From: Thermoplasmata archaeon
GTDB taxonomy: Archaea > Thermoplasmatota > Thermoplasmata > Lutacidiplasmatales > UBA184
Direction: 5' to 3'
Length of the DNA: 64,000 bases
Assembly: GCA_035507575.1 (NCBI GenBank)
Contig: DATJNY010000019.1
Coordinates: 17,681-81,680 of the forward strand
Below are positions 4,853 through 20,365 of this stretch, in pieces (position 1 is the first letter of the stretch; each line of letters starts with the position of its first letter). Below the pieces are notes generated by a model. It was not told where the DNA came from, searched no databases, and worked only from the letters and a program-made list of their open reading frames with translations. The position numbers were made by a program, and so were the translations under genes.

Positions 4853-6346
4853 ATGACGGTCAAGATGCTGATCGGGGGCGAGTGGGTCGCCGCGCACGGC
4901 GAGGCGACGACGCCCGTCGCGAGCCCGTTCGACGGGGCGAAGCTGGAGGAGGTCCCCCGCGGGACGCGGGAGGACGCCCGGCATGCGATCGACGCGGCGC
5001 GCGAGGCGTTCGACCGGGGCCCGTGGCCCCGGCTCCCCCCGCGGGCGCGCGGCGAGGTGTTCCTGAAGGCCGCGCAGATCCTGACCGCGCGGCTCCCGCA
5101 GCTCGCCGAGCTCGAGTCGCGCAACCAGGGCAAGACGATCAAGCAGGCGCTGGACGCCGACCTTCCCTTCTCCGTCGATAATCTGATCTTCTACGCCGGC
5201 GCCGGCCGCACCCTGGAGGCGAAGAGCCCGGGGGAGTTCACTGGCGAGGGCACGACGATCCTCCGTCGGGAACCGATCGGCGTCGTGGCGTCGATCACCC
5301 CGTGGAACTACCCGTTCATGATGGCCGTTTGGAAGATCGGGCCCGCGCTCATCACCGGTAACACGGTGGTCCTCAAGCCGGCGAGCTGGACCCCGCTCAC
5401 GACCCTCGAGCTCGGCCGGGCGTTCCAGGAAGCCGGCGTCCCGGCGGGAGCGCTCAACGTGGTCACGGGCCCCGGGGACGAGGTCGGGGACGAGCTCTCC
5501 CGCAATGCGAAGGTCGATCTCGTCTCGCTGACCGGCGACACCGCGACGGGGCGGAAGATCATGGAGGCGGCGAGCCACACCGTGAAGCGCGTCCAGCTCG
5601 AGCTCGGCGGCAAGGCCCCGTTCGTCGTCTTCGAGGACGCCGACCTCGCCGCGGCGGTCGAAGGGGCGATCGTCGCCGGCTTCGTGAACGGCGGCCAGGA
5701 CTGCACCGCGGCGACGCGCCTCATCGTCCACGAGAAGGTGCGCGACCCGTTCGTCCGACGGCTCCTCGAGCGCGTGGCGACGATCCGGATGGGGGATCCC
5801 CTCTCCCGATCGACCGATCTCGGCCCGCTCGTCCACGTGACGCACCAGCAGCGGGTCCTGCACTTCGTCGAGCAGGGCCAGGAGGAAGGCGCGAAGCTCG
5901 TCGCGGGCAGCCCCGAGGCGCCGAAGGAGCTCCCGCACGGCGCGTTCGTGCGCCCAACGATCTTCGACGCCGTCGCGCCCGACATGGCGATCGCGCAGAA
6001 GGAGGTGTTCGGGCCGGTGCTCGACGTCCTCACGTTCGGCTCGTTCGACGAGGCGATCCAGATCGCGAACGGGGTCGAGTACGGCCTCGCAGGGAGCGTC
6101 TGGACGAACGATCTCCGCACGGCGATCCGCGCGTCGAACGCGTTGCGGTTCGGGGACGTCTGGATCAACGATCACCTCCCGCTCGGCTCGGAGACGCCGC
6201 ACGGGGGATTCAAGCAGTCCGGCTTCGGCAAGGACCTCGGCACGGACTCGCTGCTCGACTACACCGCGATCAAGAACATCTACATCGACCTCACGGGGCA
6301 GGCCCGCAAGGGGTGGCACTACCTCACCTACGGCGATCCGGCCTGA
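4853..6346 (+). CDS. NAD(P)-dependent aldehyde dehydrogenase
   Basis: 497 aa. The ALDH family signature region (VTGPGDEVGDELS...ELGGKAPFVVFEDAD...) and the catalytic Cys region (GQDCTAATR) are present. Confidence 0.9.
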   Translation: MTVKMLIGGEWVAAHGEATTPVASPFDGAKLEEVPRGTREDARHAIDAAREAFDRGPWPRLPPRARGEVFLKAAQILTARLPQLAELESRNQGKTIKQALDADLPFSVDNLIFYAGAGRTLEAKSPGEFTGEGTTILRREPIGVVASITPWNYPFMMAVWKIGPALITGNTVVLKPASWTPLTTLELGRAFQEAGVPAGALNVVTGPGDEVGDELSRNAKVDLVSLTGDTATGRKIMEAASHTVKRVQLELGGKAPFVVFEDADLAAAVEGAIVAGFVNGGQDCTAATRLIVHEKVRDPFVRRLLERVATIRMGDPLSRSTDLGPLVHVTHQQRVLHFVEQGQEEGAKLVAGSPEAPKELPHGAFVRPTIFDAVAPDMAIAQKEVFGPVLDVLTFGSFDEAIQIANGVEYGLAGSVWTNDLRTAIRASNALRFGDVWINDHLPLGSETPHGGFKQSGFGKDLGTDSLLDYTAIKNIYIDLTGQARKGWHYLTYGDPA

Positions 6347-6354
6347 GGGGACCC

Positions 6355-7839
6355 GTGGCGGACGGCATCCCGGCGAGCGGCAAGGGCGCCCTCCTGATCG
6401 GAGGGGCGTGGCGGGCGCCGTCCGCGCAGCAGTACGCCTCGGTCCACGACCCGTCGACGGGGCGGGTGGTCGGCGAGGCGCCGATCGCCTCGGCGGACGA
6501 GGCGCGCGCCGCGGTCGACGCCGCCGCCGAGGCGGAGGAACGGTGGGCCGAGGTGCCGGGCCACGAACGGGCGCGGATCCTGCGCGCCGCCGCGGCGCGC
6601 CTCGAGGCCGACCGCGAGACGATGGCGCGACTGATCGCTGTCGAGGTCGGAAAGCCGATCACCGACGCCCGGATCGAGGCCGACCGAGCGGCCGGGGTGT
6701 TCCGCCTCGCCGCAGAGGAGATCCGGCATCTGGGCGGCGAGAGTTTCCCGGCCGACGCCTACGAGCGGCCCGCGGGCAACGAGCACCGGTTCCTGTTCAC
6801 GGTCCGGGACCCGATCGGGGTCGTGGTCGCGATCGGTCCGTTTAACTTTCCCCTGAACCTGCTCGCGCACAAGGTCGCGCCGGCGCTCGCGGCCGGCAAT
6901 CCCGTCGTCGCGAAGCCGACGTCGGCGGCGCCGTTCACGGCCCTGCGCCTGGCGGAGCATCTCGTCGCAGCCGGGGTGCTCCCCGGCGCGCTCAACGTCG
7001 TCGTGGGGCCCGGAGGCACGGTCGGCGACGCCCTCGTCGAACACCCGCGGACCCGGCTCGTAACGTTCACCGGGTCGACGGAGGTCGGCAAGGCGCTCGC
7101 GGGGAAGGCGGGGCGCCTCGCGAAACGGGTCATCCTGGAGATGGGGGGCCTCGACCCGTTCGTGGTCCTCGAGGACGCGCCGCTCGAGTCGACGGTCCAG
7201 GCGGCCGCGCGGGGGGTCTTCGCGTATTCCGGCCAGGTGTGCACCGCTTCGAAGCGGTTTCTCGTGCAGGACGGCATCGCGGACGCGTTCGCGGAGCGGC
7301 TCGCGGAACGGGCCCGCGCCCTGCGCGTCGGGCCGGCGCTCGAGGAGACGACCGAGGTCGGGCCCCTCATCGATGCGCAGGCCGTCGCGCGGATGGAGGA
7401 GCTCGTCGACGACGCCCGGGCGCGCTCCGCCCAGGTCCGGGCGGGCGGGCGCCGGCCGCCGGAGCGGACGGAGGGGAATTTCTACGCACCGACGGTCCTG
7501 GACGCTGTGCCCGAGTCGGCCCGGGTCCTCCACGAGGAGCCGTTCGGGCCGATCGCCCCGGTGGTCCGGTTCCACGACCTCGATGACGCGGTGCGGATCG
7601 CCAACGCGACGCCGTACGGATTGCAGGCCGCGGTCTACACGCGCGATCTCGCCCGCGGTTTCGCGCTGGCGAAGCGGATCCGCGCGGGCGGGGTGCACCT
7701 CAACGATCCGACGAACCTGCGTTGGGACGCCCTGCCGTTCGGGGGCGTCCGGGAGAGCGGCCTCGGCCGGGAAGGGCTGCGGTACGCGATGCGGGAGATG
7801 ACCGAGGTGAAGCTGATCTCGGTCAACTACGGCGGCTGA
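6355..7839 (+). CDS. Aldehyde dehydrogenase family protein (second paralog)
   Basis: ALDH motifs are present (GKPITDAR, ELGGKS-like EMGGLDPFVV, catalytic GQVCTASKR). I prefer the GTG at 6355, just after the upstream stop; the ORF track begins at 6313, inside the upstream gene. Confidence 0.85.
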   Translation: MADGIPASGKGALLIGGAWRAPSAQQYASVHDPSTGRVVGEAPIASADEARAAVDAAAEAEERWAEVPGHERARILRAAAARLEADRETMARLIAVEVGKPITDARIEADRAAGVFRLAAEEIRHLGGESFPADAYERPAGNEHRFLFTVRDPIGVVVAIGPFNFPLNLLAHKVAPALAAGNPVVAKPTSAAPFTALRLAEHLVAAGVLPGALNVVVGPGGTVGDALVEHPRTRLVTFTGSTEVGKALAGKAGRLAKRVILEMGGLDPFVVLEDAPLESTVQAAARGVFAYSGQVCTASKRFLVQDGIADAFAERLAERARALRVGPALEETTEVGPLIDAQAVARMEELVDDARARSAQVRAGGRRPPERTEGNFYAPTVLDAVPESARVLHEEPFGPIAPVVRFHDLDDAVRIANATPYGLQAAVYTRDLARGFALAKRIRAGGVHLNDPTNLRWDALPFGGVRESGLGREGLRYAMREMTEVKLISVNYGG

Positions 7840-7845
7840 GACGGC

Positions 7846-9347
7846 TCACGACGGCTCGGCGTCCGGGAACGTCCGGCCCGGCACGGGCGGGACGACGGGC
7901 CCGGGCAGACCGGGCGCCGGCAGGCGGGGTTCGGCGAGTCCGGTAAGCCCCGGCGCAGTCGGCCGGCTGCCGCGGGCGTGGGGGATCGGCTCGAGGCTAT
8001 CGAGCGCGTCCTCGAACGCGGCGAGCCCGCGCTCCAGGAGCTCGTCCTCGATGGTGAGCGGCGCCATGAACCGCAGCGCCTGGTCCCAGGCGCCGGCGGT
8101 GTGCATCAGCACCCCCCGGGCGAACAGCGCCGAGCGCATCGCCTTCGCGCGATCGCCCCACGGCGCGCGCGAGGCCGCGTCCCGGATGAACTCGACCCCG
8201 ATCATGAACCCCTTTCCCCGGACGTCGCCGATCGCGGGATGCGCCGACGCCATGCCGCGGAACCGCTCGACGAGCGCCGCGCCCCGATGGCGCGTCCGTT
8301 CCAGGAGGTCGCCCTCCCGGAGCACCTTCAGGACCTCGGTCCCGACGGCGAGGGCGAGCGGGTTGCCGCGATACGTTCCGATGTGGAACCCGCGCGGGAG
8401 CTCCTTCACGAGATCGGATCGGTAGGCGACCATCGAGACCGGGATCCCGCCCCCGATCGTCTTCGCGATGCAGAGCAGGTCCGGCGTCACCCCGGCGTGC
8501 TCGACCCCCCACATCCGGCCGGTCCGGCCGAGTCCCGTCTGGACCTCGTCCGCGATCAGGAGGATGCTGTGGCGGTCGCAGAACTCCCGGAGCGCCGGCA
8601 GGAAGTCGTCCGGGGGGACGACGTACCCCCCCTCGCCGAGGATCGGCTCGACGAGCACCGCGGAGACGGCGTCGATCCCCGACGCGGGATCGCTCACGAG
8701 GTGCTCCAGGTACGCGATCGTGCCGGCCGCCCCCTCCTCCGCCCCGAGAACGGGCCGGTAGGGGTCCGGGAACGGCACGCGCACGACACTCCCCCCGCCG
8801 AACGCGGACGTGGCGTGGTACCGTCGGGCGCTCGTCAGCCCCACGACGCCGCCGTGGACGCCGTGGTAGGCGCCCGAGAACGCCACCGTTCCGTGCTTCC
8901 CCTGGGCGAAGTCGGCGAGCGACACGGCGGTCTCGACCGCATCGCCGCCGGTGACGGTGAACAGGACCCGCGCGTGGTGGCGCAGGGAGCCGGGCAGCGC
9001 GTCCTGGAGCTCCTTGAGGAATGCGATCCGGACCTCGGTCGGGAGCTCGAGCGCGTGCCAAATCCGCTCCGATTGGGCCTGCATCGCCGCGACGAGGCGG
9101 GGATGGCGATGACCGAGATTGAGGACCGAGATGCCGGCGACCCAGTCGAGGTACCGGTTCCCGTCGACATCCTCGATCGTCGAGCCCTGCGCGCGGGCCG
9201 GCGCCATCGGAAAGTAGTGCGGATAGCCGATCGCGTCGGTCTCCCAGCGCCCCTGCGACTCGAGGAGCCGCCGCGAGTTCGGGCCGGGCGGAGGGACGAC
9301 GATCCGGGGCGCGTCCGGGTAGCTCAACCACGTGGAGCGATCCGTCA
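7846..9347 (-). CDS. Class III (omega) aminotransferase, PLP-dependent
   Basis: AT-III fold motifs are present (GNRYLDW..., DEVQTG, the PLP-lysine region CIAKTIGGG). I prefer the start at GTG 9347 (VTDRSTWLSYPDAPRIV...). The extension to 9618 is Arg-rich and overlaps the divergent amidohydrolase. Confidence 0.8.
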
Positions 9348-9443
9348 CGGCGCCCTCGCCCCGAGCACCGGCGTTCGCCCATATAACGGAGGACGCGGCG
9401 CCGGCCCGGGCAATTTTATCGACCCAAGTCGTCCCGTGCGACG

Positions 9444-10304
9444 ATGGCGGGTGCGAGCGAACCCCGGATCGACACCCACCTGCACCTGACGCGCTGGTGG
9501 CCGGACCTGGCCGGGACCGCCTATCGCGCGGACCTCGAGTACAACTCCGCGGGGCTGCTCGACGAGATGACCGCCGCCGGCATCGACTACGGGCTCGTGA
9601 TCCAGATCCACGAGGCACCGAGCGTCGAGGAAGCGCTCGAGGAGAGCCAGACGCTCGCGGCGGCGAGCGGAGGGCGGCTTCGCCCCGTCGTGACCGTCGA
9701 TCCGACCCGGGGCGAGGGCGCGGTCGCGGAAGCGCTCGCGCTCTGGGAGTCGGACCCCGCCATCGCCGGGGTCAAGCTGTTCCCGGGCTACCTGCCGTTC
9801 TACCCGCACGACCCTCGGGTCGACCCGATCTACGAGTTCGCGGGACGGCGCCGGCTCCCCGTCCTGATCCACCAAGGGGACACGCTCGACCGGAAGGGTC
9901 GGATCAAATTCGCCCGCCCGATCGAAGTGGACGAGGTCGCGGTCCGCTACCCGGACGTCCGCTTCGTGCTCTGCCACTTCGGCAACCCGTGGATCGACGA
10001 AGCGGCGGAACTCGTGTACAAGAACGAGAACGTCTACGCCGATACCTCGGGGCTGCTCGCGCATCCGTCCGCCCCCTACTTCGACCGGATGGTGGAGGAG
10101 TGCCGGGCGCGCATCGGACGCGCGATCCTGTCGATCGGCGCCGCCGACCGGATCCTGTACGGCTCGGACTGGCCGCTCGAGGAGCTGTGCCTCGCGGTCG
10201 ATCTCGTCGCTCGTCTCGATCTCCCGGCGGAGGACCGGGCGAAGATCCTCGGCGGGAACGCGGCCCGCCTGTTCGGCTTCCCGCGCCGGTCCGGGTCGTC
10301 ATAA
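9444..10304 (+). CDS. Amidohydrolase-2 family metal-dependent hydrolase (TIM barrel)
   Basis: N-terminal IDTHLHL metal-binding motif and a later HxH/D pattern (VLCHFGNPWIDEAAEL, YGSDWP). Confidence 0.8.
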   Translation: MAGASEPRIDTHLHLTRWWPDLAGTAYRADLEYNSAGLLDEMTAAGIDYGLVIQIHEAPSVEEALEESQTLAAASGGRLRPVVTVDPTRGEGAVAEALALWESDPAIAGVKLFPGYLPFYPHDPRVDPIYEFAGRRRLPVLIHQGDTLDRKGRIKFARPIEVDEVAVRYPDVRFVLCHFGNPWIDEAAELVYKNENVYADTSGLLAHPSAPYFDRMVEECRARIGRAILSIGAADRILYGSDWPLEELCLAVDLVARLDLPAEDRAKILGGNAARLFGFPRRSGSS

Positions 10305-10351
10305 CCCGGACGCCTCTCGGGGGGCGGTTCCGGACGGGGCCGGGGGACGTC

Positions 10352-11698
10352 GTGGACGGCGAGGAGATCCAGCGGATCGTCCGGGAGACGAACTACGTCA
10401 CCTGGCGCAAGCAGGCCGGCTGGAACCCGCTCGTCGTCGCGCGCGCCGAGGGTTCCCGGTTCTGGGACAGCGCCGGCAAGGAGTATCTCGACCTCTCCTC
10501 CCAGCTGATCGCGACCAACTTGGGCCACGCGAACCCGGCGGTCGTCCAGGCGATCGCGGACCAGGCGCGTACCCTGCCTTACGCCGTGCCGGGGTTCGCG
10601 ACGGAGCCCCGGGCGCGCCTCTCGCTCGCGCTCCAGGAGATCCTCCCGAAGGGGCTCGACCGGTTCTTCTTCAGCACCTCGGGGACCGAGGCGAACGAGG
10701 CGGCGCTGAAGATCGCCCGGGTCGCGACCGGGCGCACCAAGATCCTGGCGCGGTACCGCTCCTACCACGGGGCGACGGCCGCCTCGATCTCCGTGACGGG
10801 GGAGATGCGCCGCCGTCCGATCGAGCGGGTGCAGCGGGTCCCGGGGACCGTCTTCGCGCCGGACTGCTACTGCTACCGCTGCCCGTTCGGCCTCACGTAC
10901 CCGGACTGCGGGGTCGCGTGCGCCGAGTACGTGGACTACCAGCTCGAGCGGGAGGGCGACGTCGCGGCGATGATCGTCGAACCCGTCGTCGGGACGAACG
11001 GGGTCCTCGTGCCGGTGCCGGAGTACCTGCCCCGCCTCCGCGCGATCACGCGCAAGCACGACGTGCTGCTCCTCGCGGACGAGGTGATGAGCGCGTGGGG
11101 CCGCGTCGGCGAGTGGTTCGCCGTCGACCACTGGAACGTCGTCCCCGACCTCCTCACGACCGCGAAGGGGATCACCGGCGCCCACATCCCGCTCGGGCTG
11201 ACCGCGACGACCGCGAAGCTGCACGACGCGTTCCAGGACACATACTTCCCGCACGGCCACACCTACGAGGCCCATCCCCTGACGCTGGCCCCGGCGGTCG
11301 CGGCGATCGGGGAGTACCGCCGGCTGGGCCTGCTCGAGAAGTCCCGGAAGGACGGAGCGTACTTGCTGCAGCGCCTCCAGGAGCTCCAGGCGCGGCACCG
11401 GTCCGTGGGCGAGGTCCGGGGGCTCGGGCTGTTCGCCGCGGTCGAGCTCGTGAAGAACCGGGCGAAGCGCGTCCCGTTCAACACCGAGGACGACAAGCTC
11501 GCGGGCCGGCCGCTCGTCGTGGATCGGGTGACGGCGGCGATGCTGAAGGAGGGGGTCTACTGCATCGGATGGGTCTCCCACCTGATCATCGCGCCGCCGC
11601 TCATCATCGCGCGCGAGGAGCTCGACCGGGCGCTCGAGGTGCTCGATCGCGCCCTGCTCCTCGCCGACGCCGAGGCGGATCCGGCGCCCGCCGCGTAG
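10352..11698 (+). CDS. Class III aminotransferase (omega-amino acid:pyruvate-type)
   Basis: The in-frame GTG at 10352 lies just after the amidohydrolase stop. Motifs SSQLIATNLGHANP, DEVMSAWGRVG and the PLP-Lys region TTAKGITGA are present. The long 9332.. N-terminal extension is an artefact. Confidence 0.85.
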   Translation: MDGEEIQRIVRETNYVTWRKQAGWNPLVVARAEGSRFWDSAGKEYLDLSSQLIATNLGHANPAVVQAIADQARTLPYAVPGFATEPRARLSLALQEILPKGLDRFFFSTSGTEANEAALKIARVATGRTKILARYRSYHGATAASISVTGEMRRRPIERVQRVPGTVFAPDCYCYRCPFGLTYPDCGVACAEYVDYQLEREGDVAAMIVEPVVGTNGVLVPVPEYLPRLRAITRKHDVLLLADEVMSAWGRVGEWFAVDHWNVVPDLLTTAKGITGAHIPLGLTATTAKLHDAFQDTYFPHGHTYEAHPLTLAPAVAAIGEYRRLGLLEKSRKDGAYLLQRLQELQARHRSVGEVRGLGLFAAVELVKNRAKRVPFNTEDDKLAGRPLVVDRVTAAMLKEGVYCIGWVSHLIIAPPLIIAREELDRALEVLDRALLLADAEADPAPAA

Positions 11699-11705
11699 CC
11701 CGCGC

Positions 11706-13154
11706 TCAGAACCAGCGGGTCGTCACGACCTTCTTGCGGGTGTAGAACTCGATCGCGTCGCGGCCCGTCGCGTGGAGGTCGCCGTAGAAGGAGCCCTTCC
11801 AGCCGACGAACGGGAAGTAGGCCGCCGGAGCGGGGACACCGAGATTGATGCCGACCATCCCGGCCTCGATGCGGTGGGCGAACTCGCGGGCCGCGCGGCC
11901 GTCCCGGGTGAAGATCACCGCCGCATTGCCGTACCGGGACCGGTTCGCCACCTCGAGCGCGGCGTCGAGTGACGCCACCCGGATCACTGCGAGGACGGGA
12001 CCGAAGACCTCCTCCTGGGCGATCGCCATCTCGGGCGCGACCCGGTCGAACAGCACCGGCGCCACGTAGAACCCGTCCCCCGCGCTGGGGGCGGCCCCGC
12101 GGGCGGCGACGGTCGCCCCGCCGGCCTCGCCCTCCTCGATCCAGCGGAGCACGCGCTCGCGATGTTCCGCACGGATCACGGGTCCGACCGCCGTCGCGCG
12201 GTCGCCGGCGGGCCCGACCGCGAGGTGCCGTACCGCTTCCGCGAGCCGCGCGACGAGCGCGTCCCCGACGGGTTCGACCGCCAGCACGACGCTCCCCGCG
12301 AGGCAGCGCTCGCCGGACTGGCCGAACGCGCTCGAAAGGATGGCGGGGACCGACCGCTCGAGGTCGGCGTCCGGCATCACCACCATGTGGTTCTTCGCGC
12401 CCGCGAGCGCCTGGACGCGCTTTCCGTGCGCGGCGGCGGTCGTGTAGACGTGCCGGGCGGTCGGGGCCGAGCCGACGAACGACACCGCGTCGACGCCCGG
12501 ATGGGTGAGCAGCGCGTTGACCGCCGCGGCGTCCCCGTGGACGAGGTTGAACGTCCCCGGCGGGAACCCCGCCTCGTCGAACAGCCGGGCGAGCAGGCCG
12601 GCGGAGAGCGGCACCCGCTCCGACGGCTTCAGGACGAAGGCGTTGCCGCAGACGAGCGCGAGCGGCGCCATCCACAGCGGGATCATGACCGGGAAGTTGA
12701 ACGGGGTGATCCCGGCGACCACTCCGAGAGGCTGCCGCACGAGCGTCGTGTCGACGCCCGGGGAGACCTCCTCCAAGAACGCCCCCTGCATCGTGGTCGG
12801 CGCCGACGCCGCGAACTCGACGGCTTCGAGCCCGCGGCGGACCGAGCCGCGGGCCTCCTCGAGCGTCTTCCCGTTCTCGCGGACGACCGAGCTCACGAGC
12901 GCGTCGAAGTGCGCGTCGATCCCGGCCCGGAGTGCGAGGATCCGGCGCGCCCTCTCGGCGACCGGGACGTCCCGCCATCCGGGGAACGCGCGTCGCGCCG
13001 CGGCGACCGCGCCGTCGACGTCGGTCGGACCCGAGCGGGGGACCCGAGCGAGGAGCCGGCCGGTGGACGGGTCCGGCACATCGAGCGCCGCCTCGGCCGC
13101 AGCGCGGACCCAGCGACCGCCGACGAAGTTCTCGAGCACGTCGTCGCCGGACAT
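11706..13154 (-). CDS. Aldehyde dehydrogenase, methylmalonate-semialdehyde dehydrogenase-like (CoA-acylating ALDH subfamily)
   Basis: ALDH core plus the catalytic Cys (GERCLAG). The C-terminal ...KVVTTRWF ending is characteristic of MmsA-type enzymes. Confidence 0.8.
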   Translation of the reverse strand: MSGDDVLENFVGGRWVRAAAEAALDVPDPSTGRLLARVPRSGPTDVDGAVAAARRAFPGWRDVPVAERARRILALRAGIDAHFDALVSSVVRENGKTLEEARGSVRRGLEAVEFAASAPTTMQGAFLEEVSPGVDTTLVRQPLGVVAGITPFNFPVMIPLWMAPLALVCGNAFVLKPSERVPLSAGLLARLFDEAGFPPGTFNLVHGDAAAVNALLTHPGVDAVSFVGSAPTARHVYTTAAAHGKRVQALAGAKNHMVVMPDADLERSVPAILSSAFGQSGERCLAGSVVLAVEPVGDALVARLAEAVRHLAVGPAGDRATAVGPVIRAEHRERVLRWIEEGEAGGATVAARGAAPSAGDGFYVAPVLFDRVAPEMAIAQEEVFGPVLAVIRVASLDAALEVANRSRYGNAAVIFTRDGRAAREFAHRIEAGMVGINLGVPAPAAYFPFVGWKGSFYGDLHATGRDAIEFYTRKKVVTTRWF

Positions 13155-13188: not shown

Positions 13189-14025
13189 TCACGGACGAGG
13201 CGCGTCGTCCGGGCGGCGACGGGCGGTGTAGATCGGGGTGACCGTCGTCAGCCGGACGGTGCCGCCGAACTCGACGCGAGCGACCCGTTCGATCGCGTCG
13301 AGGAAGCGCGTGCGGGCCCGGAGTGGCATCTTCCCGACCTCGCCGAACGTCCCGTAGAGCCCGCGGACCTCGTGCGCCGTGAGGTCGACCTCCGACCGGA
13401 TCGCTTCGTACGCGATCCGGTCGAAGCGGCCCGTGGCGCGAAGGTGGCGGAGCCGGCGGCGGACCTCCTCCCGCATCTGACGCCGGCTGTCCCGCACCCA
13501 CTGCTCGTACCGGCTCGGGCGGGAACCCCAGATCGCCATCGTCGCGCGCTGGAATTCGGTCGGGCGCTCCGGATCCCCGTGGCGGTTCCACCACATCGCC
13601 CACCAGCCGCCGGGCCGAAGCAGTCGCGCGATCTTCGGGAGCGCCCGGTGCTCGTTGACCCAGTGGAAGGAGGTCGCCGCCACGCCGAGGTCGAAGAGAC
13701 CCTCGGGGAGGACCGCCTCCTCGAACGGCGTGTTCACGATCAGGACCCGGGGTCGCGCCGCGCGGAGCGAGACGTCGAGGTAGCGGGCGAGTCGGGGGTC
13801 GGGTTCGATCGCGCAGAGCGGGTCCGCCCCCGCGCGGAGGAGGATCCGGCTCGCGACGCCGGGGCCCGGGCCGATCTCGAAGACGGCGGCGCCGGGGGCC
13901 AATCCGCACCGGCGCTCCAGGATCTCGCGGACCCGCCGGGGATACGGGAGCCGGTACCGGGCGTAGCCCGCGGGATCGCGGCCGAACGCCCGACGGCCCT
14001 CGCGACGCAGGAGCGACGGTGCCAT
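13189..14025 (-). CDS. Class I SAM-dependent methyltransferase
   Basis: Motif I glycine-rich loop (VFEIGPGPGVASR) and the overall Rossmann methyltransferase pattern are present. I prefer the start at internal Met 14025; the extension to 14124 is also possible. Confidence 0.65.
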   Translation of the reverse strand: MAPSLLRREGRRAFGRDPAGYARYRLPYPRRVREILERRCGLAPGAAVFEIGPGPGVASRILLRAGADPLCAIEPDPRLARYLDVSLRAARPRVLIVNTPFEEAVLPEGLFDLGVAATSFHWVNEHRALPKIARLLRPGGWWAMWWNRHGDPERPTEFQRATMAIWGSRPSRYEQWVRDSRRQMREEVRRRLRHLRATGRFDRIAYEAIRSEVDLTAHEVRGLYGTFGEVGKMPLRARTRFLDAIERVARVEFGGTVRLTTVTPIYTARRRPDDAPRP

Positions 14026-14148
14026 GCTCGAACGCCCCACAGCCCGGGCCGAGGAGATGAGCTGTCCCCTCGCGGGCCCCCGCCCGGGAGGGTTTTTGTA
14101 AGGGCAGGGGCTCCGAAGCTCCACGGTCCGACCGCCGGTCGGGCTGAC

Positions 14149-15531
14149 CTGGGAGATGGGACACTGGACCCCCGCTTTGCAACCGCGTTCGCGGAGTACC
14201 AGCGGCGCACGCCGCGCTCGAAGGAGCTGTGGGAGCGCGCCCGGCAGTCGAGCCCCCTAGGGGTCCACTCGAACTATCGATTCCTCGATCCGTACCCGTT
14301 CTACGTCCACCGCGCCTCGGGCGTCCACCTGTGGGACGCCGACGAGAACGAGTACCTGGACTTCAACATGGGATTCGGCTCGTTGCAGAGCGGCCACGCG
14401 CACCCGAAGCTGGTCGAGGCGCTCACCCGTCAGCTCCACGACGGGAGCGTGTACGGGTACGAGTGGGAGCGGACCCCCGAGGTCGCCGAGCGGATCTGCC
14501 GCCGGTACCGGATGGAGAAGGTCCGGTTCAGCACCACCGGCCTCGAGGCGACCCAGCACGCGGTCCGGTTCGCCCGGGCGTACACGAAGAAGCGCCACGT
14601 CCTCAAGTTCGAGGGCTGCTACCACGGCTCGCACGACACCCTCCTCGTCGGGGTGAAGCCCCGGGCGGAGGTCGCCGGACCCCCGCGTCACCCGAACTCC
14701 GCCCCGGCGTCGCCGGGGATCCTTCCCGAGGTCGCCGCCCACACGCTCGTCGCGCCGTTCAACGACCTCGAGGCGACGCGGGCGATCGCCCGGGAGCACG
14801 CGGACGACCTCGCGGCAATCATCGCGGAGCCGATCCCGATGAACATGGGGTTCATCCTGCCGGACGACGGCTTCTTTCCCGGGGTGCGCGAACTGTGCGA
14901 CGAGCTCGGGTCGCTCCTGATCCTGGACGAGATCAAGACCGGCGCGAAGTACCTGCACGGGGGCGCGGCCCGTCTCGGGGTCCGCGCGGACCTGATCACC
15001 CTCGGCAAGTCGATCGCCTGCGGCGTCCCGATGTCCGCGATCGCGGCCGGGCCGGGGATCCTGGATGAGGTCGGTCCCCGGAAGGTCGCCCACGCGGGGA
15101 CGTACAACTCGAACCCGCTCGGCATGGCCGCGTGCCTCGCCTCGCTCGACCACATCTTGACCGAGGAGGCGCTCGAGCGGTCCGCCGCACTCAACGCCCA
15201 GCTCTCGAAGGGATACGCCGAGGTGTTCGACGACGCGGGGGTGACGGCGCACGTCTCCTCGGACGGGGTCTCGGGCACCGTGTACTTCACGGACCACCCC
15301 GTCCGCAACTGGCGGGATTTCCTGACCGTCGACGGCGACCGGTCGATGCAGTACTACTACGAATCTCTGAACCGGGGGCTGATCCCCTCCGGCACCGGTC
15401 CTGATGAGCAGTGGACGATCTCGGTCCAGCACACGGCGCGGGACGTGGAGCGTCACCTCGAGATCCTGGGGGCCGTGGCGGAGCACCTCGTGGGGGCCCC
15501 CCAGGCCGGCGAGATCGAGGAGTCGGTCTGA
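14149..15531 (+). CDS. Class III aminotransferase, glutamate-1-semialdehyde aminomutase-like
   Basis: GSA-AT-like N-terminus (SKELWERARQSSPLGVHSNYR...), PLP region (DEIKTG, ITLGKSIACG). The 5' end is unresolved: no in-frame ATG/GTG/TTG exists between the divergent upstream gene and the conserved N-terminus, and CTG 14149 is the first candidate. Confidence 0.6.
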   Translation: MGDGTLDPRFATAFAEYQRRTPRSKELWERARQSSPLGVHSNYRFLDPYPFYVHRASGVHLWDADENEYLDFNMGFGSLQSGHAHPKLVEALTRQLHDGSVYGYEWERTPEVAERICRRYRMEKVRFSTTGLEATQHAVRFARAYTKKRHVLKFEGCYHGSHDTLLVGVKPRAEVAGPPRHPNSAPASPGILPEVAAHTLVAPFNDLEATRAIAREHADDLAAIIAEPIPMNMGFILPDDGFFPGVRELCDELGSLLILDEIKTGAKYLHGGAARLGVRADLITLGKSIACGVPMSAIAAGPGILDEVGPRKVAHAGTYNSNPLGMAACLASLDHILTEEALERSAALNAQLSKGYAEVFDDAGVTAHVSSDGVSGTVYFTDHPVRNWRDFLTVDGDRSMQYYYESLNRGLIPSGTGPDEQWTISVQHTARDVERHLEILGAVAEHLVGAPQAGEIEESV

Positions 15532-15572
15532 ACCGGTTCGCCCGTCGTCCCGGCCGCGGCCGGCGCGGGCGA

Positions 15573-15890
15573 TCAGGCCGCCGAGCCTTCGGGCGGCGCG
15601 AAGACGACGAGCAGCACGAGTTCCTCCGTGATCGAATGGAACCGATGCGCCTCGCGCGCCGGCACGAACAGCACGTCCCCGGGGTTCGCCGGCGACTCCT
15701 CGTTCCCGTGCCGCAGCGTCCCGTGCCCCCGGACGACGTAGTAGATCTCGTCCTCGGTGTGCGGCGATTGCCGGTCGACCCCCCCGGCCGGGAGGACGTA
15801 CACCCCGACGCTGAGGGTCGCGACGCGCAGGAACTCCGCGTAGCCGTCGCCGCGCTTCGCCTTCCCGGCTTCCACCTCGATCGCGCTCAT
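15573..15890 (-). CDS. Cupin domain protein
   Basis: 105 aa. Cupin motifs G(X)5HXH-like (PHTEDEIYYVVRGHGTL) and the second motif (GDVLFVPAREAHRF) are present. Confidence 0.7.
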   Translation of the reverse strand: MSAIEVEAGKAKRGDGYAEFLRVATLSVGVYVLPAGGVDRQSPHTEDEIYYVVRGHGTLRHGNEESPANPGDVLFVPAREAHRFHSITEELVLLVVFAPPEGSAA

Positions 15891-15944
15891 CGAACGCCCG
15901 TCCCGCGCGAGCCGGCTGAGGGTGATAGCCGCGTCGGGCCGTGC

Positions 15945-17315
15945 TCACGCCCCGCGCCCGGCCCGGCGCGCGCGGAACTCGTCGGCGGCCCGAGTCCCGG
16001 TGTCGATCGCCCCGGCGACGGTGCCGGATTGTCCGTCGAGGTCCGTCGCCTCGCCTCCAAAGAAGAGCCGTCCCGCGACGCTCGCGGCGAGATCGCGCCG
16101 GGCCGCGAGGCCCACCCCCGGGGGAAGGTAGGAGTAACCGCCCCGCACCCAGGGATCGTCCGGCCAGCGATGCACGGCCATCCCGTCGACCTCCCCGACG
16201 CGGACGCCCGAGGGCAGCATCGCCTCCCACTCGACGAGGGTCGCGTCGACCAGCTCCCGGTCGGTGAGGCCAGCACGCCGTCGCGCTTCGGGGCCCACCG
16301 TGAACGCGGTCAGCACCTCGACGCGCTCTCGCAGCCCGACCCGGGGGCGATAGAGCGACGACGGCGTGCCGCCGTACAGGAGGGAGAAGTCGCCCCAGTG
16401 CTCGGTGAGCGAGCTCCCGCGGACGCGGAGCTGGAGGGCGTAGGCGTCGCCGAAAGCGATCCGCTCGATCGCGCGGCGTTTCGCATCGGGGAGCGGCGGA
16501 TCGAACCGGATCGCCCCGGCCTTGAGCACACCGAGCGAGACCGTGACGATCGCCGCCGAGGACCGTACCTCGAAGGAGTCCCCGTTCGGACGGCGGCCCC
16601 GGACGAGCACTCCGTCGGGCTCGAGGAGGACGTCGGTGACCGCGTGCCCGAGACGAACGCGAGGCCCCAGGCGACTGGCGACGCGCTCGACGAGGGTGCT
16701 GTACCCCTCGACCAACTGGAAGTTCCGGAACCCGTACGGTTCGCGCGCCGCACGATACTCCTCCGCCGGACCGAGCAGCCCGATCACGGACGGCTCGGCG
16801 GCAGCAACGTGGGCGTAGAGCAACTCAACGATCCGGCGGGCCGCGGGCCGCCGGGGCCGCTCGTCCAGGAACTGCGCCAGCGAACGATCGGGAGCGGTCG
16901 CCGCGTCGATCTCGCGAGGAACCTCCACGAGTCCCTCGTAGAACGCCCGGGAGCCAACGAGGGGATGGAACGGCAGCGCGATCCACGGGAACCGACCGAC
17001 CCGCCGATCGAGCACGATGCGGCTGCGCTGCTGCACCGGCAAGCGCCGACGGTGGAGCTGTTCCCGTGCGACCCAGCGATGGGTCACAGCGGTGCGGCCG
17101 TGGATCATCTGGGCGCCGAGCTCGAGCGGTACCCCTTCGACGAGCCGGTAGTCGGTGTACGTCCGGCCGCCGAGCCGATCGCTCGCCTCGAGCACCACAC
17201 ACGTGTGGCCGGCCTCGATGAGCCGCAGCGCGGCGGAGAGGCCGGCGAAGCCCCCGCCGATCACGACGGCGTCGCTCCGTCCGTCCGTCGCGCCACCCCC
17301 TCCGCCGGGAGTCAA
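15945..17315 (-). CDS. Flavin-containing amine oxidase (polyamine/monoamine oxidase family)
   Basis: N-terminal FAD dinucleotide-binding motif (AVVIGGGFAGLSAALRL...E....GGR) and the C-terminal FAD region (FFGGEAT). Confidence 0.8.
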   Translation of the reverse strand: MTPGGGGGATDGRSDAVVIGGGFAGLSAALRLIEAGHTCVVLEASDRLGGRTYTDYRLVEGVPLELGAQMIHGRTAVTHRWVAREQLHRRRLPVQQRSRIVLDRRVGRFPWIALPFHPLVGSRAFYEGLVEVPREIDAATAPDRSLAQFLDERPRRPAARRIVELLYAHVAAAEPSVIGLLGPAEEYRAAREPYGFRNFQLVEGYSTLVERVASRLGPRVRLGHAVTDVLLEPDGVLVRGRRPNGDSFEVRSSAAIVTVSLGVLKAGAIRFDPPLPDAKRRAIERIAFGDAYALQLRVRGSSLTEHWGDFSLLYGGTPSSLYRPRVGLRERVEVLTAFTVGPEARRRAGLTDRELVDATLVEWEAMLPSGVRVGEVDGMAVHRWPDDPWVRGGYSYLPPGVGLAARRDLAASVAGRLFFGGEATDLDGQSGTVAGAIDTGTRAADEFRARRAGRGA

Positions 17316-17562
17316 GAGCTCGCGTCCCGTGCCGGGGGCGCGGCGATCGGCCGACGGCGTGGCGCCGGGGCGCGAGAACGTTTCGTGTACGACGCACGCC
17401 AGGCGGTCGGCTGCGTTCGGGGGGACACGCGGCTCGGGAGGGAGAGGGGCGGCTTAATCGCGAGCCCTCGCCGTCGGCCCGCGAGGAGCCGATGGGCGAG
17501 GACGCGGTCCGCCCTCGGCGGCAAACAACGCCTTTAACGCTCGCCCCCCCTCCCGGCGCTCG

Positions 17563-18762
17563 ATGCCGGCGCCCGCGCAGGCCGCGCGACGGGAGACCTC
17601 CTCGACGGGGCCGTCCGGGGCGAAGCCGGGGCCGGGCCGAACCCCGGACGGATCGGTCTACTGGGATCCCGCGGTGTGGACGACCGAGCTCGACCGGCTG
17701 TTCTACCGGCGATGGCTCTGCGTCGGCCGCGCGGAGCAGATCCCGGAAACCGGAGATTTCCTCACGCGCACGGTCGGCCGCGAACACCTGCTGTTCGTCC
17801 GCGCGCCGGCCGGGGACGTGCGGGGCTTCTACAACCTCTGCCGCCACCGCGGCACGCGCATCGTCCTCGCTCCCGAAGGGAAGGGAGCCCACTCGTTCAT
17901 CTGTCCGTACCACGCCTGGTCGTACGATCTCACCGGCCACCTCGTCGGCGCCCGGCACATGGACGGCGAGGAAGGGTTCGACCGCGCCCAGTTCGCCCTC
18001 CACCCGATCCGCGTCGCCACCTGGGGCGGGTTCCTCTGGGCGAACCTCGAGCCCGACGCGCCGCCCCTGGCGGGCGCGCTCGGCCCGTTCTTCGACCGGT
18101 TCGCCCGCTTTTCGCTGGCCGATCTGCGCCGCGGGGGCCACCGAGAGTACGAGGTCGAGGCGAACTGGAAGATCGTCGTCGAGAACTTCTCCGAGTGCTA
18201 CCACTGCGCGCCGGTGCATCCCAGCCTGAACCGGCTGACGCCGTACCTCTCGGGAGGGAACGATGCGACGTTCCGCCGGGCGGACGGCCCTCCCTCGCCG
18301 TGCGCCGGCGGCTTCATGGAGTTCGCCCGGGACTTCCAATCGATGACGCGGACCGGCTACACGCAGCGGCCGCGGCTGCCCGGCACCACGGACGAGGACG
18401 CCCGCCGGGTCTACTACTACGTGGTCTTCCCGAACCTGTTCTTCAGCCTGCACCCGGACTACCTCATGATCCACCGGGTCTGGCCGGTCTCGCCGACGCA
18501 CTCGCGCATCGAGAACGAGTTCTACTTCGCCCCCGAGGCGATGGCGGCGCCGGCGTTCGACCCGTCCGACGCGATCGATCTCTGGGACGAGATCAATCGC
18601 CAGGACTGGACCGTCTGCGAACTGGCGCAGGAAGGGATGGGCTCGCGCGCGTGGACGGGCGGGGTCTACAGCGACCGGGAGTCGCTCGTCCGCGACTTCG
18701 ATGAGTTCCTCGCGGACGAACTCCAGCGCGCCGACCCGGACCGTACGGCCGGGCCCGGCTGA
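17563..18762 (+). CDS. Rieske non-heme iron oxygenase, alpha subunit (GbcA/CntA/stachydrine-demethylase-like)
   Basis: Rieske [2Fe-2S] motif CRHRG...CPYHAW. The catalytic domain has mononuclear-iron His/Asp candidates (ECYHCAPVHPS). No beta subunit is adjacent. Confidence 0.8.
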   Translation: MPAPAQAARRETSSTGPSGAKPGPGRTPDGSVYWDPAVWTTELDRLFYRRWLCVGRAEQIPETGDFLTRTVGREHLLFVRAPAGDVRGFYNLCRHRGTRIVLAPEGKGAHSFICPYHAWSYDLTGHLVGARHMDGEEGFDRAQFALHPIRVATWGGFLWANLEPDAPPLAGALGPFFDRFARFSLADLRRGGHREYEVEANWKIVVENFSECYHCAPVHPSLNRLTPYLSGGNDATFRRADGPPSPCAGGFMEFARDFQSMTRTGYTQRPRLPGTTDEDARRVYYYVVFPNLFFSLHPDYLMIHRVWPVSPTHSRIENEFYFAPEAMAAPAFDPSDAIDLWDEINRQDWTVCELAQEGMGSRAWTGGVYSDRESLVRDFDEFLADELQRADPDRTAGPG

Positions 18763-18787
18763 CCGCGCGGACCGTTCGGACGCGCGG

Positions 18788-20365
18788 TCACCGGGGGAGC
18801 GAGCGAAGGTCCTCGCGGATCACTTCGGCCGCGTTGTGGCCCGGTGCGCCGGTGACGCCGCCGCCGGGATGCGCCGCGGATCCGCAGAGGTACATCCCTC
18901 GGATCGGGGTGCGGTACCCTGACCAGCCGAGGATCGGACGGAACGAGAAGATCTGGTCGGGCGCGAGGTTCCCCTGGAAGATGTTCCCGCCGGTCATGCC
19001 GAGCGTGCGCTCGATGTCGAGCGGCGAGACGATCTGCCACTCCTTCACGACCTTGCGGACGTTGGGGGCGTACTCCGCGTACGTGTCGAGGATCCGCTCG
19101 GCCGCTTCCGGCTTGAACTCGTCCCACGTGGTGTCCCGGAGCGCGTAGGGCGCGTACTGGACGAAGCACGTCATGACATGCTTGCCGGCCGGGGCCATCG
19201 ACGGGTCGACGACGCTCTGGATCTCGCAGTCCAGGAACGGGCGCTGCGAGAAGGCGCCGTACTTCGCGTCGTCGAACGCCCGCTCCAGGTACTCCATCGA
19301 CGGGCAGATCTCGATCGCTCCCGCGTGATGGGGGCCGGGGGTCTTCGGCGCCGCAGTGAACTTCGGCAGCCCGTCGAGCCGCGCGTGGAACTTGAGCGCC
19401 GCACCGCGGCTCCGGATGCGTCCGACCGCGCGCACGACCTCCGGAGGGACGGCATCCCGCGGAAGGAGCTCGAGGTACGTGTGCTGCGCGTCGAGGTTCG
19501 AGGCGACCGCCCGGGCCTCGATGAACTCCCCGTTCTCGAGCGTCACGCCCGTCGCCGCGCCGTCGCGGACGTTGACGGCGCGGACGGGGGCGCTGGTGCG
19601 GATCGTCGCGCCGAAGTGGGTGGCCGCCTTCGCCATCGCCTCCGTGAGGCGGCCCATCCCTCCCTTCGAGAACCCCCAGACCCGGCGGAGGCCGTTCAGC
19701 GTGCCGAGGCTGTGGTGGGCGAGCACGTAGGCGGTACCGGGCGTTCGAGGGCCGACCATCTCTCCGATCACGGCGTTCGTGGCGAGCGCGACCTTCAGCT
19801 CGTCCGATTCGAACCACTGGTCGAGGAAGTCCTGGGCGGAGAGGAGGAAGAGGCTCCGGACGAGTTCCTCGACCTCGGGGCCCGGGAACGCCGCGACGAG
19901 GTCGGCGAGCGGGACGGGCGGCGCCAGGAGGAGCGGCTCGACCAGATCGAGGACCCCATCCCAGAACGCCTCGTACTTCGGGTAGGCGCGGGCATCCTTC
20001 TTCGAGAACTTCGCGATCTCGGCCTGGCTCTTCTCGACGTCGTTCCAGAGCGAGAGGCTTCGACCGTCGGGGAACGGGCAGAACGCCTGCGGGTCGTACA
20101 GGATCGGCTCGTAGCCGAACCGGGCCAGCTCGAGCTCCTCCGCGATCTGGGGCCGCAGGAGGCCCGCGACATAGGAGAACGTGTTGACCCGGAAGCCGGG
20201 CCACGGCTCCTCGGTGATCACGGCGCCCCCCACGAACGGGCGCCGCTCCAGGACGACGACCTTCGCCCCCGCCTTCGCGAGATAGCCCGCGGCGACGAGC
20301 CCGTTGTGGCCCCCGCCCACGATCGCGACGTCGAAATCGGCCAACTTCGGCCCCGACCGCGCCAC
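18788..20365 (-). CDS. FAD/NAD(P)-binding oxidoreductase of the phytoene-desaturase (CrtI)-related family
   Basis: N-terminal Rossmann motif (DVAIVGGGHNGLVAAGYLAKAG...E) and a CrtI-like C-terminal region. Confidence 0.75.
   Translation of the reverse strand: MARSGPKLADFDVAIVGGGHNGLVAAGYLAKAGAKVVVLERRPFVGGAVITEEPWPGFRVNTFSYVAGLLRPQIAEELELARFGYEPILYDPQAFCPFPDGRSLSLWNDVEKSQAEIAKFSKKDARAYPKYEAFWDGVLDLVEPLLLAPPVPLADLVAAFPGPEVEELVRSLFLLSAQDFLDQWFESDELKVALATNAVIGEMVGPRTPGTAYVLAHHSLGTLNGLRRVWGFSKGGMGRLTEAMAKAATHFGATIRTSAPVRAVNVRDGAATGVTLENGEFIEARAVASNLDAQHTYLELLPRDAVPPEVVRAVGRIRSRGAALKFHARLDGLPKFTAAPKTPGPHHAGAIEICPSMEYLERAFDDAKYGAFSQRPFLDCEIQSVVDPSMAPAGKHVMTCFVQYAPYALRDTTWDEFKPEAAERILDTYAEYAPNVRKVVKEWQIVSPLDIERTLGMTGGNIFQGNLAPDQIFSFRPILGWSGYRTPIRGMYLCGSAAHPGGGVTGAPGHNAAEVIREDLRSLPR

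Follow-up and report, generated by a model that had tools for sequence, protein, structure and literature searches.

What is a dense run of aldehyde dehydrogenases, aminotransferases, flavoproteins and a Rieske oxygenase doing in the genome of an uncultured archaeon? The run occupies positions 4853–20365 of a 64,000-nucleotide stretch of contig DATJNY010000019.1 (assembly GCA_035507575.1), assigned to the Thermoplasmata lineage UBA184 (Lutacidiplasmatales). We call the whole 64-kb stretch the window and the 4853–20365 interval the cluster. Our answer, which we hold with a probability of about one half, is that the cluster may be an island of catabolic genes for an N-alkylated amine taken up from outside; the compound most likely has a quaternary (trialkylammonium) nitrogen on a short omega-amino carbon chain. 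An earlier reading made from the letters of this DNA alone (the sequence-only reading) had proposed oxidative and transaminative breakdown of a polyamine, an omega-amino acid or a quaternary amine; amino-compound catabolism still appears the best reading, and that shortlist would stand.

The window has a GC content of ~70%, so its six-frame lists of open reading frames (ORFs) are crowded with spurious frames. Frames were chosen by third-position GC (GC3) and then scanned against Pfam and NCBIfam, which gave twelve genes in the cluster: three aldehyde dehydrogenases (ALDH1, ALDH2 and a methylmalonate/malonate-semialdehyde dehydrogenase, MMSDH), three class III aminotransferases (AT1, AT2 and AT3), an Amidohydro_2-family protein, a methyltransferase, a small cupin, a flavin amine oxidase, a Rieske oxygenase alpha subunit and a CrtI/CrtO-like flavoprotein. 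These scans recovered every enzyme family that the sequence-only reading had listed and both end coordinates, but its total of thirteen genes was a miscount, as the intergenic gaps are too small for any further gene. L085, an ENA contig assembled independently, matches positions 8153–26065 of the window at 99.4% identity, ungapped and with the same gene order, so the arrangement is not an assembly artefact.

Group V Rieske oxygenases act on quaternary ammonium compounds and share several traits: they are built of alpha subunits only (alpha3), and they have a bridging Glu and a Cys-X-X-Cys pair beside the iron (PMC7948474, PMC10952381). In clade Va, whose members act on carnitine, choline and benzalkonium, the residue at position 203 is aromatic and contacts the ammonium group through a cation-pi interaction, while in the demethylases of clade Vb (Stc2, GbcA/BmoA) it is Asn (PMC7948474). 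In the window protein, the Rieske ligands C93/H95/C114/H117 and the iron ligands H214/H219/D348 are invariant across 23 archaeal orthologs, 54 bacterial homologs and Stc2. Also invariant, within the motif ENFSECYHC, are the bridging E211 (E205 in CntA) and the Cys pair C212/C215 (C206/C209 in CntA). F209 occupies the position of the cation-pi residue Y203 of CntA; among the 23 archaeal orthologs this position is Phe in 11 and Tyr in 12, and the Y203F mutant of CntA is active (PMC7948474).

The nearest PDB entries by sequence are Stc2 (153 bits, full length), CntA (145 bits, mostly in the N-terminal 190 residues) and the uncharacterised 3N0Q. The same three are the best Foldseek matches of an AlphaFold model of the protein (pLDDT 82; TM 0.70–0.81), and in both HMMER and Foldseek the group V structures outrank biphenyl and terephthalate dioxygenases.

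Each characterised relative resembles the window protein in part. Stc2, the stachydrine (proline betaine) demethylase of Sinorhizobium meliloti (PDB 3VCA/4QUP, clade Vb), is the best match in both sequence and fold (TM 0.77) and has the same alpha-only build, Rieske and 2-His-1-Asp ligands, bridging Glu and ECYHC Cys pair. However, the two are only ~28% identical, the Phe of the window protein is Asn in Stc2, the gene context of Stc2 is different and the window protein sits on a long branch apart from it. CntA/YeaW, the carnitine monooxygenase (PDB 6Y8J, clade Va), shares the aromatic cation-pi residue, the bridging Glu, the Cys pair, an N-terminal 190 residues matching at 140 bits and the fold (TM 0.70–0.81), and semialdehyde products such as those of CntA would suit the ALDHs of the window. 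Its C-terminal catalytic domain, however, aligns poorly by sequence (structure-based identity ~23%), and it uses a dedicated reductase, CntB, which is essential for activity (PMC7948474) and has no counterpart in the window. GbcA/BmoA, which works with GbcB/BmoB, is a group V enzyme too, and JGI labels many homologs of the window protein 'glycine betaine catabolism A', but GbcA lacks the aromatic residue (PMC7948474), and the window has neither a GbcB-type reductase nor DgcAB/Sox genes. The NCBIfam GbcA model NF058607 (cutoff 670 bits) scores 193.5 bits over two separate stretches, the better of which covers residues 31–223, i.e., mainly the N-terminal half. We rejected a GbcA assignment on that score and on the Va-type aromatic residue in place of the Vb Asn. 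In the label 'GbcA/CntA-like' given by the sequence-only reading, the resemblance is thus real and the GbcA identity is not. Judged by its sequence, the protein is a putative group V-type oxygenase with a Va-type signature, in a clade uncharacterised so far, and it is an ortholog of none of GbcA, CntA or Stc2.

Gene neighbourhoods were compared over 84 loci by tblastn and clustering, together with precomputed Pfam lists; individual loci are cited here by L numbers. The conserved core is the Rieske gene plus the CrtI/CrtO-like flavoprotein gene, which is the most constant Rieske neighbour: 17 of 22 archaeal loci and nine bacterial ones (e.g., L029 and L082) have it within 10 kb, often less than 60 bp away, and archaeal loci sometimes have two or three paralogous copies. 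The flavoprotein is in the CrtO/CrtI superfamily and outside its named families, scoring 314 bits with the NCBIfam CrtO model NF045689 (cutoff 1000) and 136 bits with crtI_fam TIGR02734 (cutoff 238). Foldseek with its AlphaFold2 model (pLDDT 84) finds CrtD (4REP, TM 0.78–0.83), then CrtI, then NicA2, MAO and putrescine oxidase.

Relatives in which the Rieske protein is at least 57% identical add further genes to this core, namely a polyamine oxidase (PAO)-like oxidase (6/22), a cupin (8/22) and an Opp/Dpp-type transporter (8/22). The PAO-like gene of the window encodes a flavin amine oxidase that matches PF01593 at 201.6 bits (cutoff 19.8) over residues 23–446 and has an N-terminal Rossmann fold for flavin adenine dinucleotide (FAD). 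Its nearest structures are LSD2/LSD1 and maize polyamine oxidase (69–86 bits), and MAO-B is also among them. Cupin orthologs, 59–71% identical, are present in 8 of the 22 archaeal loci and adjoin the amine oxidase gene in six of those eight.

The peptide-type ABC importer that the sequence-only reading placed beside the cluster is confirmed as Opp/Dpp-type by its SBP_bac_5 binding protein, permease and oligo_HPY ATPases. Permease and ATPase orthologs (54–76% identical) adjoin the Rieske gene in Thermoplasmata loci, and SBP_bac_5 orthologs (42–50% identical) lie directly beside it in 8 of 22. In L001, L009 and L011, the amine oxidase gene is flanked by permease and ATPase genes, all on one strand, and is accompanied in L001 by the cupin gene. 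Because oxidase and cupin are embedded in the transporter operon of these relatives, the importer is tied to the pathway. In the window, the binding-protein gene is divergent from ALDH1. The PDB matches of the binding protein are weak (HbpA/YliB, 46–48 bits) and give no clue to its ligand.

More distant relatives place the Rieske gene in a different company. A stand-alone gene for a GcvT-like tetrahydrofolate aminomethyltransferase lies within ~4.5 kb of it in 16 bacterial and five divergent archaeal loci; in most of the 16 the two genes are directly adjacent. In Chloroflexota loci (e.g., L029, L082 and L053) they belong to a conserved arrangement together with a PotABCD-like transporter, MttB and sometimes a CrtO-like flavoprotein. 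The GcvT-like protein is similar to DmdA (314 bits; cutoff 410) or to the C-terminal domain of trimethylamine N-oxide demethylase (Tdm). The bacterial loci also contain a non-pyrrolysine MttB gene (11 loci) and, in many cases, a PotABCD-like transporter, and such a setting is typical of the catabolism of methylated-onium compounds. The CrtI-like protein and stand-alone GcvT of these relatives resemble a split FAD-plus-folate N-demethylase of the type of dimethylglycine oxidase, heterotetrameric sarcosine oxidase or Tdm, but their flavoprotein is of the CrtI/amine-oxidase family rather than the DAO family, and the window has no GcvT. Among archaeal relatives, many loci carry a saccharopine-dehydrogenase-family protein, weakly carboxynorspermidine-synthase-like (102 bits), or SRPBCC proteins (AHSA1/Polyketide_cyc2), and one carries an agmatinase/formimidoylglutamase-family protein.

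The remainder of the cluster is a block of aminotransferases and dehydrogenases with accessory genes. The order AT3, (methyltransferase), MMSDH, AT2, Amidohydro_2, AT1, ALDH2 is kept in L003, L005, L007 and L085, with identities of 72–92%. MMSDH is the sole cluster enzyme above a curated subfamily-level cutoff (TIGR01722, 562 bits against 448.5, with residues 9–481 on model positions 3–477). ALDH1 just misses the NCBIfam aminobutyraldehyde dehydrogenase subfamily (573 bits against 615) and scores 499 bits as a betaine-aldehyde dehydrogenase (BADH). ALDH2, with an 86% identical ortholog in L007, reaches 400 bits against 646 for succinate-semialdehyde dehydrogenase (SSADH), and an 8-nt gap separates the two genes, which probably share an operon. 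AT1, which starts at either a TTG at 9327 or a GTG at 9348, is closest in structure to Escherichia coli GabT (265 bits) and scores 315 bits against 507 for 4-aminobutyrate (GABA) aminotransferase (GABA-AT). AT2 matches taurine:2-oxoglutarate aminotransferase (6JIX, 275 bits) and polyamine:pyruvate transaminase (9J4Z, 229 bits) in the PDB and 417 bits against 472 for its best NCBIfam model; its orthologs in L003 and L007 are 84–85% identical.

AT3 resembles glutamate-1-semialdehyde aminomutase (GSAM; NCBIfam 335 bits against 398, PDB 228 bits) and GntE (322 bits against 525). Its start is uncertain: there is no ATG, GTG or TTG start in 13663–14368, where homologs begin; in an alignment with the L005 ortholog (92% identical), whose start is GTG, the matching codon is a CTG at 14149, and in L085 the gene is called from an internal ATG (387 aa), which drops conserved N-terminal residues. 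The nearest structure to the Amidohydro_2 protein is the uncharacterised BB4693 (3IRS, 57 bits), and its orthologs in L003 and L007 are 72–74% identical and syntenic. The methyltransferase has no informative PDB or NCBIfam match. It is an accessory gene confined to the closest relatives: it is called as 278 aa in L085, and among the tblastn loci only L005 has an ortholog (73% identical).

Flavin amine oxidases depend on the lone pair of the nitrogen that they oxidise, which puts a quaternary nitrogen beyond their reach but not beyond that of a Rieske oxygenase. From the observed gene families, active-site hallmarks, synteny and gene contexts, we infer a substrate class and four steps. First, the Opp/Dpp-type transporter would import the compound, as its operon in relatives suggests. 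Second, the Rieske oxygenase, given its active-site hallmarks, would hydroxylate the carbon alpha to the charged nitrogen, and the resulting hemiaminal would collapse, either cleaving the C–N bond in the style of CntA and OxyBAC or releasing a methyl group as formaldehyde in the style of Stc2 and GbcA. Third, the CrtI-like and PAO/LSD-like flavoproteins would oxidise the tertiary and secondary amines to aldehydes and primary amines. Fourth, ALDH1 may turn amino-aldehydes into omega-amino acids, the GabT-like AT1 and SSADH-like ALDH2 may take GABA to succinate, and AT2 and MMSDH may take beta-alanine via malonate semialdehyde to acetyl-CoA; these are family-level assignments, with only MMSDH above its curated cutoff. 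The cupin, Amidohydro_2 protein, methyltransferase and AT3 would be accessory, with no step assigned to them.

Such a division of labour has a published parallel. Benzalkonium has been proposed to undergo C–N cleavage by a Rieske oxygenase, after which an amine oxidase acts (PMC5120141). As described there, OxyBAC and its downstream amine oxidase resemble the scheme above in using a Rieske enzyme for the quaternary nitrogen and flavin oxidases for the lower amines, and OxyBAC has Phe at position 203 like the window protein (PMC7948474); however, its substrate is a xenobiotic, while the window cluster is ancient and lineage-wide. The lower part of the scheme is like the bacterial funnels for GABA, beta-alanine and polyamines (GabT–GabD; beta-alanine:pyruvate transaminase–MmsA; SpuC–KauB/PauC) in its pairing of AT1 with ALDH2 and AT2 with MMSDH. 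It differs from them in its archaeal host, in the joining of these genes to a Rieske/flavoprotein front end, and in having only MMSDH above cutoff. The prediction that the lineage is aerobic (PMC9287336) also speaks for the scheme.

Several observations weigh against this pathway. The strand changes nine times among the twelve genes, which makes for eight transcription units or more and gives no evidence of co-regulation. The aminotransferase/ALDH block is absent from L001, L009, L010 and L011, which keep the Rieske/flavoprotein/ABC module; given its presence in some relatives and absence from others, the island is modular. ALDH and aminotransferase scores other than that of MMSDH all fall below NCBIfam cutoffs, so these assignments amount to family-level resemblance only. 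In fold, the CrtI-like protein is closer to carotenoid desaturases than to amine oxidases, and the binding protein is of the peptide/opine type, not the betaine type (ProX/OpuAC). The window encodes no GcvT, MttB or formaldehyde-handling protein (nor any saccharopine-dehydrogenase-family or SRPBCC protein, two families seen in the archaeal relatives). The count of Phe and Tyr at the cation-pi position in bacterial homologs is partly biased, as one of the two retrieval patterns contained [FY].

The last of these points concerns electron supply. The sequence-only reading had singled out the lack of a beta subunit, and indeed there is no gene for one in the window or related loci, but this is unremarkable in an alpha3 group (PMC7948474). 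The partner that is absent is a reductase: we found no reductase or ferredoxin gene in the 64-kb window or within 10 kb in the 22 archaeal loci, which also tells against the pathway. When the window was searched with the bacterial Rieske-type ferredoxin and for Fe–S cysteine motifs, the oxygenase itself was the only match. That ferredoxin, of 159 aa, is encoded within 10 kb in 12 loci, all bacterial, and adjoins the oxygenase gene in three. With no reductase nearby, the Rieske electrons must come from a donor encoded elsewhere. We considered the CrtI-like protein as an NAD(P)H reductase for the oxygenase and found the evidence insufficient, since no reductase is among its nearest structural neighbours, which are desaturases and amine oxidases. 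A bolder version, which we think very improbable, would make the Rieske/CrtI-like pair a self-contained N-dealkylation machine: one or more flavoprotein amine dehydrogenases would pass the two electrons from oxidation of the lower amine to the Rieske protein without NAD(P)H. The two would then represent a previously undescribed sub-clade within group V and, for archaea, the first oxygenase pathway acting on quaternary amines.

The foremost rival to a quaternary amine is a polyamine (spermidine, spermine, norspermidine or a related secondary amine), which we regard as possible though unlikely. Here, the PAO-like and CrtI-like proteins would split the polyamine into diamines and amino-aldehydes, the aminotransferases and ALDHs would carry these to succinate and acetyl-CoA, and the Rieske oxygenase would either act on a polyamine with methyl groups or branches or hydroxylate a carbon beside a nitrogen that is secondary or tertiary. 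The ALDHs and aminotransferases, three of each, and the amine oxidase match the canonical scheme almost gene for gene (spermidine to 4-aminobutanal and 3-aminopropanal, then to GABA and beta-alanine, then to succinate and acetyl-CoA), but polyamine catabolism as it is known needs no Rieske oxygenase, and the window's Rieske protein has, besides the aromatic residue at the cation-pi position, the further group V traits that go with quaternary ammonium substrates. AT2 matches the structure of a polyamine:pyruvate transaminase, and in JGI the oxidase has homologs labelled 'polyamine oxidase' or 'monoamine oxidase', yet the family scores are all below equivalog cutoffs. The genomic context is similarly divided: the weakly carboxynorspermidine-synthase-like and agmatinase/formimidoylglutamase-family proteins of archaeal relatives and the PotD/PotF-like transporters beside bacterial orthologs are what a polyamine would predict, while in relatives the nearby GcvT and MttB genes speak for N-methyl groups and the archaeal importer is Opp/Dpp-type, not PotD-type.

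Alternatively, the cluster could be a mosaic of two or three independent modules, with a Rieske/flavoprotein/ABC module that happens to lie beside a general GABA/beta-alanine salvage block. The eight or more transcription units on alternating strands, the four loci with the first module and no aminotransferase/ALDH block, and the different placement of ALDH1 and ALDH2 in L004 are all compatible with this. However, the order CrtI-like, Rieske, amine oxidase, (cupin), AT3...ALDH2 is kept in L003, L005, L007 and L085, and although L085 is an independent assembly of the same population, the Rieske proteins of the other three are only 69–76% identical. The chemistry also connects, since one part would yield amines and aldehydes and the other would consume them. 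We judge an unconnected mosaic to be improbable.

Least likely of all is a biosynthetic role, either in making a specialised nitrogen-containing metabolite or in oxidising an isoprenoid/carotenoid-type lipid. In its favour, tailoring enzymes commonly include such families as the methyltransferase, GSAM/GntE-like AT3 (322 bits with the guanitoxin GntE model), cupin, Rieske oxygenase and flavoproteins; the nearest matches to the CrtI-like protein are CrtO, CrtD and CrtI; and related loci encode SRPBCC (AHSA1/Polyketide_cyc2) proteins. Against it, there is no scaffold-forming enzyme and no exporter, an importer, a CoA-acylating MMSDH and GabT/SSADH-like genes are present, the methyltransferase is missing from most relatives, the relatives show GcvT and MttB contexts, and the CrtO/CrtI scores are far below cutoffs.

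Group V enzymes have been characterised in bacteria (for carnitine, glycine betaine, proline betaine and benzalkonium) and in plants (choline monooxygenases). A search of an available paper library found no description of this cluster or of an archaeal group V Rieske oxygenase, and the paper on Lutacidiplasmatales mentions no Rieske proteins, betaine, polyamines or amine oxidases (PMC9287336). The enzyme families and chemical logic are known, but the Rieske clade is uncharacterised, its constant flavoprotein partner is unusual, a dedicated reductase is lacking nearby and the archaeal host is uncultured. If catabolism of a quaternary or otherwise alkylated amine is correct, abundant uncultured aerobic soil Thermoplasmata (TMEG/Lutacidiplasmatales-type) would use such amines as carbon and nitrogen sources, with plant or microbial osmolytes, polyamines and lipid head-group derivatives as candidate compounds. 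The group would then have a definite ecological role, and a substrate could be proposed for enriching and cultivating it. The Rieske clade is also found in soil Chloroflexota and Acidobacteria, and its pairing with a CrtI/CrtO-like protein is a testable lead to new N-dealkylation chemistry that also bears on how archaeal Rieske oxygenases are reduced.

That the host background is archaeal, as the sequence-only reading had it, is confirmed. The window encodes fibrillarin and T2SSE/T2SSF proteins of the archaeal pilus type, and among the best 120 homologs each of the Rieske, amine oxidase and CrtI-like proteins (most of them metagenome proteins without an organism name) all organism-named matches are metagenome-assembled genomes of Thermoplasmata or other euryarchaea; for the amine oxidase, all are Thermoplasmata. 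The GC content of ~70% fits that published for Lutacidiplasma, a member of the TMEG soil archaea with ~69% GC and a predicted aerobic or facultative lifestyle (PMC9287336). A haloarchaeal origin, which such a GC content might also suggest, was rejected, as the homologs are from Thermoplasmata. A scan of the window for sigma-70 promoters and terminators was uninformative, the host being archaeal. An exact-sequence look-up of the window's Rieske protein and of P0241, a 100%-identical match to the CrtI-like protein, returned no contig on record; contigs are on record for P0001, a 98% relative.

Was part of the cluster acquired horizontally, as the sequence-only reading thought plausible, given that such oxygenases are rare in archaea? 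Rarity may hold across archaea but does not hold in this order: Rieske orthologs are present in 22 Thermoplasmata GTDB species representatives (54–76% identical), UBA184 among them, and in more than 100 metagenomic protein clusters. The next matches in a GTDB scan, at 41–50% identity, are in Chloroflexota (Limnocylindrales, Chloroflexia, Thermomicrobiales and Anaerolineae), Acidobacteria and a few others. The amine oxidase and CrtI-like protein are likewise lineage-wide. The sequence-only reading had named widespread, vertically inherited orthologs with a known assigned pathway as evidence that would count against it; the orthologs are indeed widespread in the lineage, and no pathway has been assigned in it.

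In a neighbour-joining tree of Rieske proteins (rooted on Stc2, 100 bootstraps), the archaeal orthologs form one clade (100/100) and archaeal paralogs a second (100/100); the two join together in only 8/100 replicates, and both sit among bacterial branches, the ortholog clade among those of Chloroflexota and Acidobacteria. The GC (70–75%) and GC3 (0.86–0.95) of the cluster match those of flanking genes. We rejected a recent transfer of the cluster on this match and on the lineage-wide, monophyletic orthologs. Because the orthologs are lineage-wide and form a clade at 100/100, and because GC equals that of the host, inter-domain transfer, if there was any, was ancient, and later inheritance looks vertical and lineage-wide. 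Acquisition thus survives only as an ancient event.

The paralogs of the second clade, ~41–45% identical, are encoded directly beside the ortholog in seven Thermoplasmata loci: L004 (11171–12349), L009 (6362–7675), L011, L014, L016, L018 and L023. They have Ala at the cation-pi position, and the window has no copy.

A probable integrated element of ~6.06 kb (21696–27779) starts 1.3 kb downstream of the cluster. It is bounded by a perfect 20-nt direct repeat, GGGAGGAGTGCTCCCGGCGG, at 21696–21715 and 27760–27779, the second copy of which consists of the last 12 nt of a transfer RNA (tRNA) gene plus 8 nt beyond. This tRNA gene (27768–27867, minus strand, 100 nt) contains an intron and was found with Rfam RF00005 (46.7 bits) and missed by ARAGORN. 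The GC of the element is 57–61% against ~70% around it, and its ORFs encode 215, 147, 710 and 497 aa, the last with internal repeats of ~126–144 nt; none has a Pfam match, and no integrase was recognised among them. L085, assembled independently, carries the element as well. This interval probably bears the signature of recent integration, and the amine cluster is unlike it.

Table 1. Coordinates of the cluster genes, the adjoining importer and other features of the window.
Feature	Positions	Strand	Domain evidence and remarks
Permease, C-terminal fragment cut by window start	13–519	+	Pfam BPD_transp_1
Two ABC ATPases with oligo_HPY	ORFs 240–1673, 1637–2749	+	Pfam ABC_tran, oligo_HPY; true starts probably later
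SBP_bac_5 binding protein, 643 aa	2778–4709	-	PF00496, 148 bits
ALDH1, omega-aminoaldehyde/betaine-aldehyde dehydrogenase-like	4853–6346	+	Pfam Aldedh, 562 bits
ALDH2, SSADH/lactaldehyde dehydrogenase-like	6355–7839	+	Pfam Aldedh, 533 bits
AT1, class III aminotransferase, GABA-AT-like	7846–9327	-	Pfam Aminotran_3, 337 bits
Amidohydro_2 metal-dependent hydrolase/decarboxylase family	9444–10304	+	PF04909, 144 bits
AT2, omega-aminotransferase (taurine/beta-alanine/polyamine:pyruvate type)	10352–11698	+	Aminotran_3, 300 bits
MMSDH, CoA-acylating (MmsA type)	11706–13154	-	TIGR01722
Class I S-adenosylmethionine methyltransferase	13189–14124	-	Pfam Methyltransf_11/25
AT3, class III aminotransferase, GSA-aminomutase/beta-transaminase-like	~14149–15531	+	Aminotran_3, 203 bits
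Small cupin, 105 aa	15573–15890	-	Pfam Cupin_2, 50 bits
Flavin amine oxidase, PAO/LSD-like	15945–17315	-	Pfam Amino_oxidase
Rieske oxygenase alpha subunit	17563–18762	+	PF00355 + PF00848
CrtI/CrtO-like FAD oxidoreductase	18788–20365	-	Amino_oxidase, 62 bits, + FAD Rossmann domains
Conserved small ORF, 84 aa, downstream of CrtI-like gene	20465–20719	-	No Pfam match
GNAT acetyltransferase	29571–30113	-	
GNAT acetyltransferase	30944–31528	+	
T2SSE-family ATPase	32957–35176		
T2SSF-family membrane protein	35180–36130		
PhoU-domain protein	40258–41289		N-terminal AbrB/MazE-like domain
ATPase of phosphate-uptake-like locus	~42796–43494		
Two permeases of phosphate-uptake-like locus	43548–45413		
PBP_like_2 binding protein	45506–46804		
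OMPdecase/HUMPS-family domain fused to RraA-like domain	52675–54018	-	RraA-like: aldolase/demethylmenaquinone methyltransferase-like
Fibrillarin	61970–62647		

The small ORF downstream of the CrtI-like gene has orthologs (49–77% identical) at the same position in L001, L003, L008 and L010, and it is also called in L085. The two GNAT acetyltransferase genes lie 9–11 kb downstream of the cluster, and GNAT genes flank L001 too; a link to amine or polyamine acetylation is possible. The phosphate-uptake-like locus spans 40258–46804. A second block of lower GC (61–64%) covers 32000–42000, and within it the T2SSE- and T2SSF-family genes make up an archaeal type IV pilus/archaellum-like locus.

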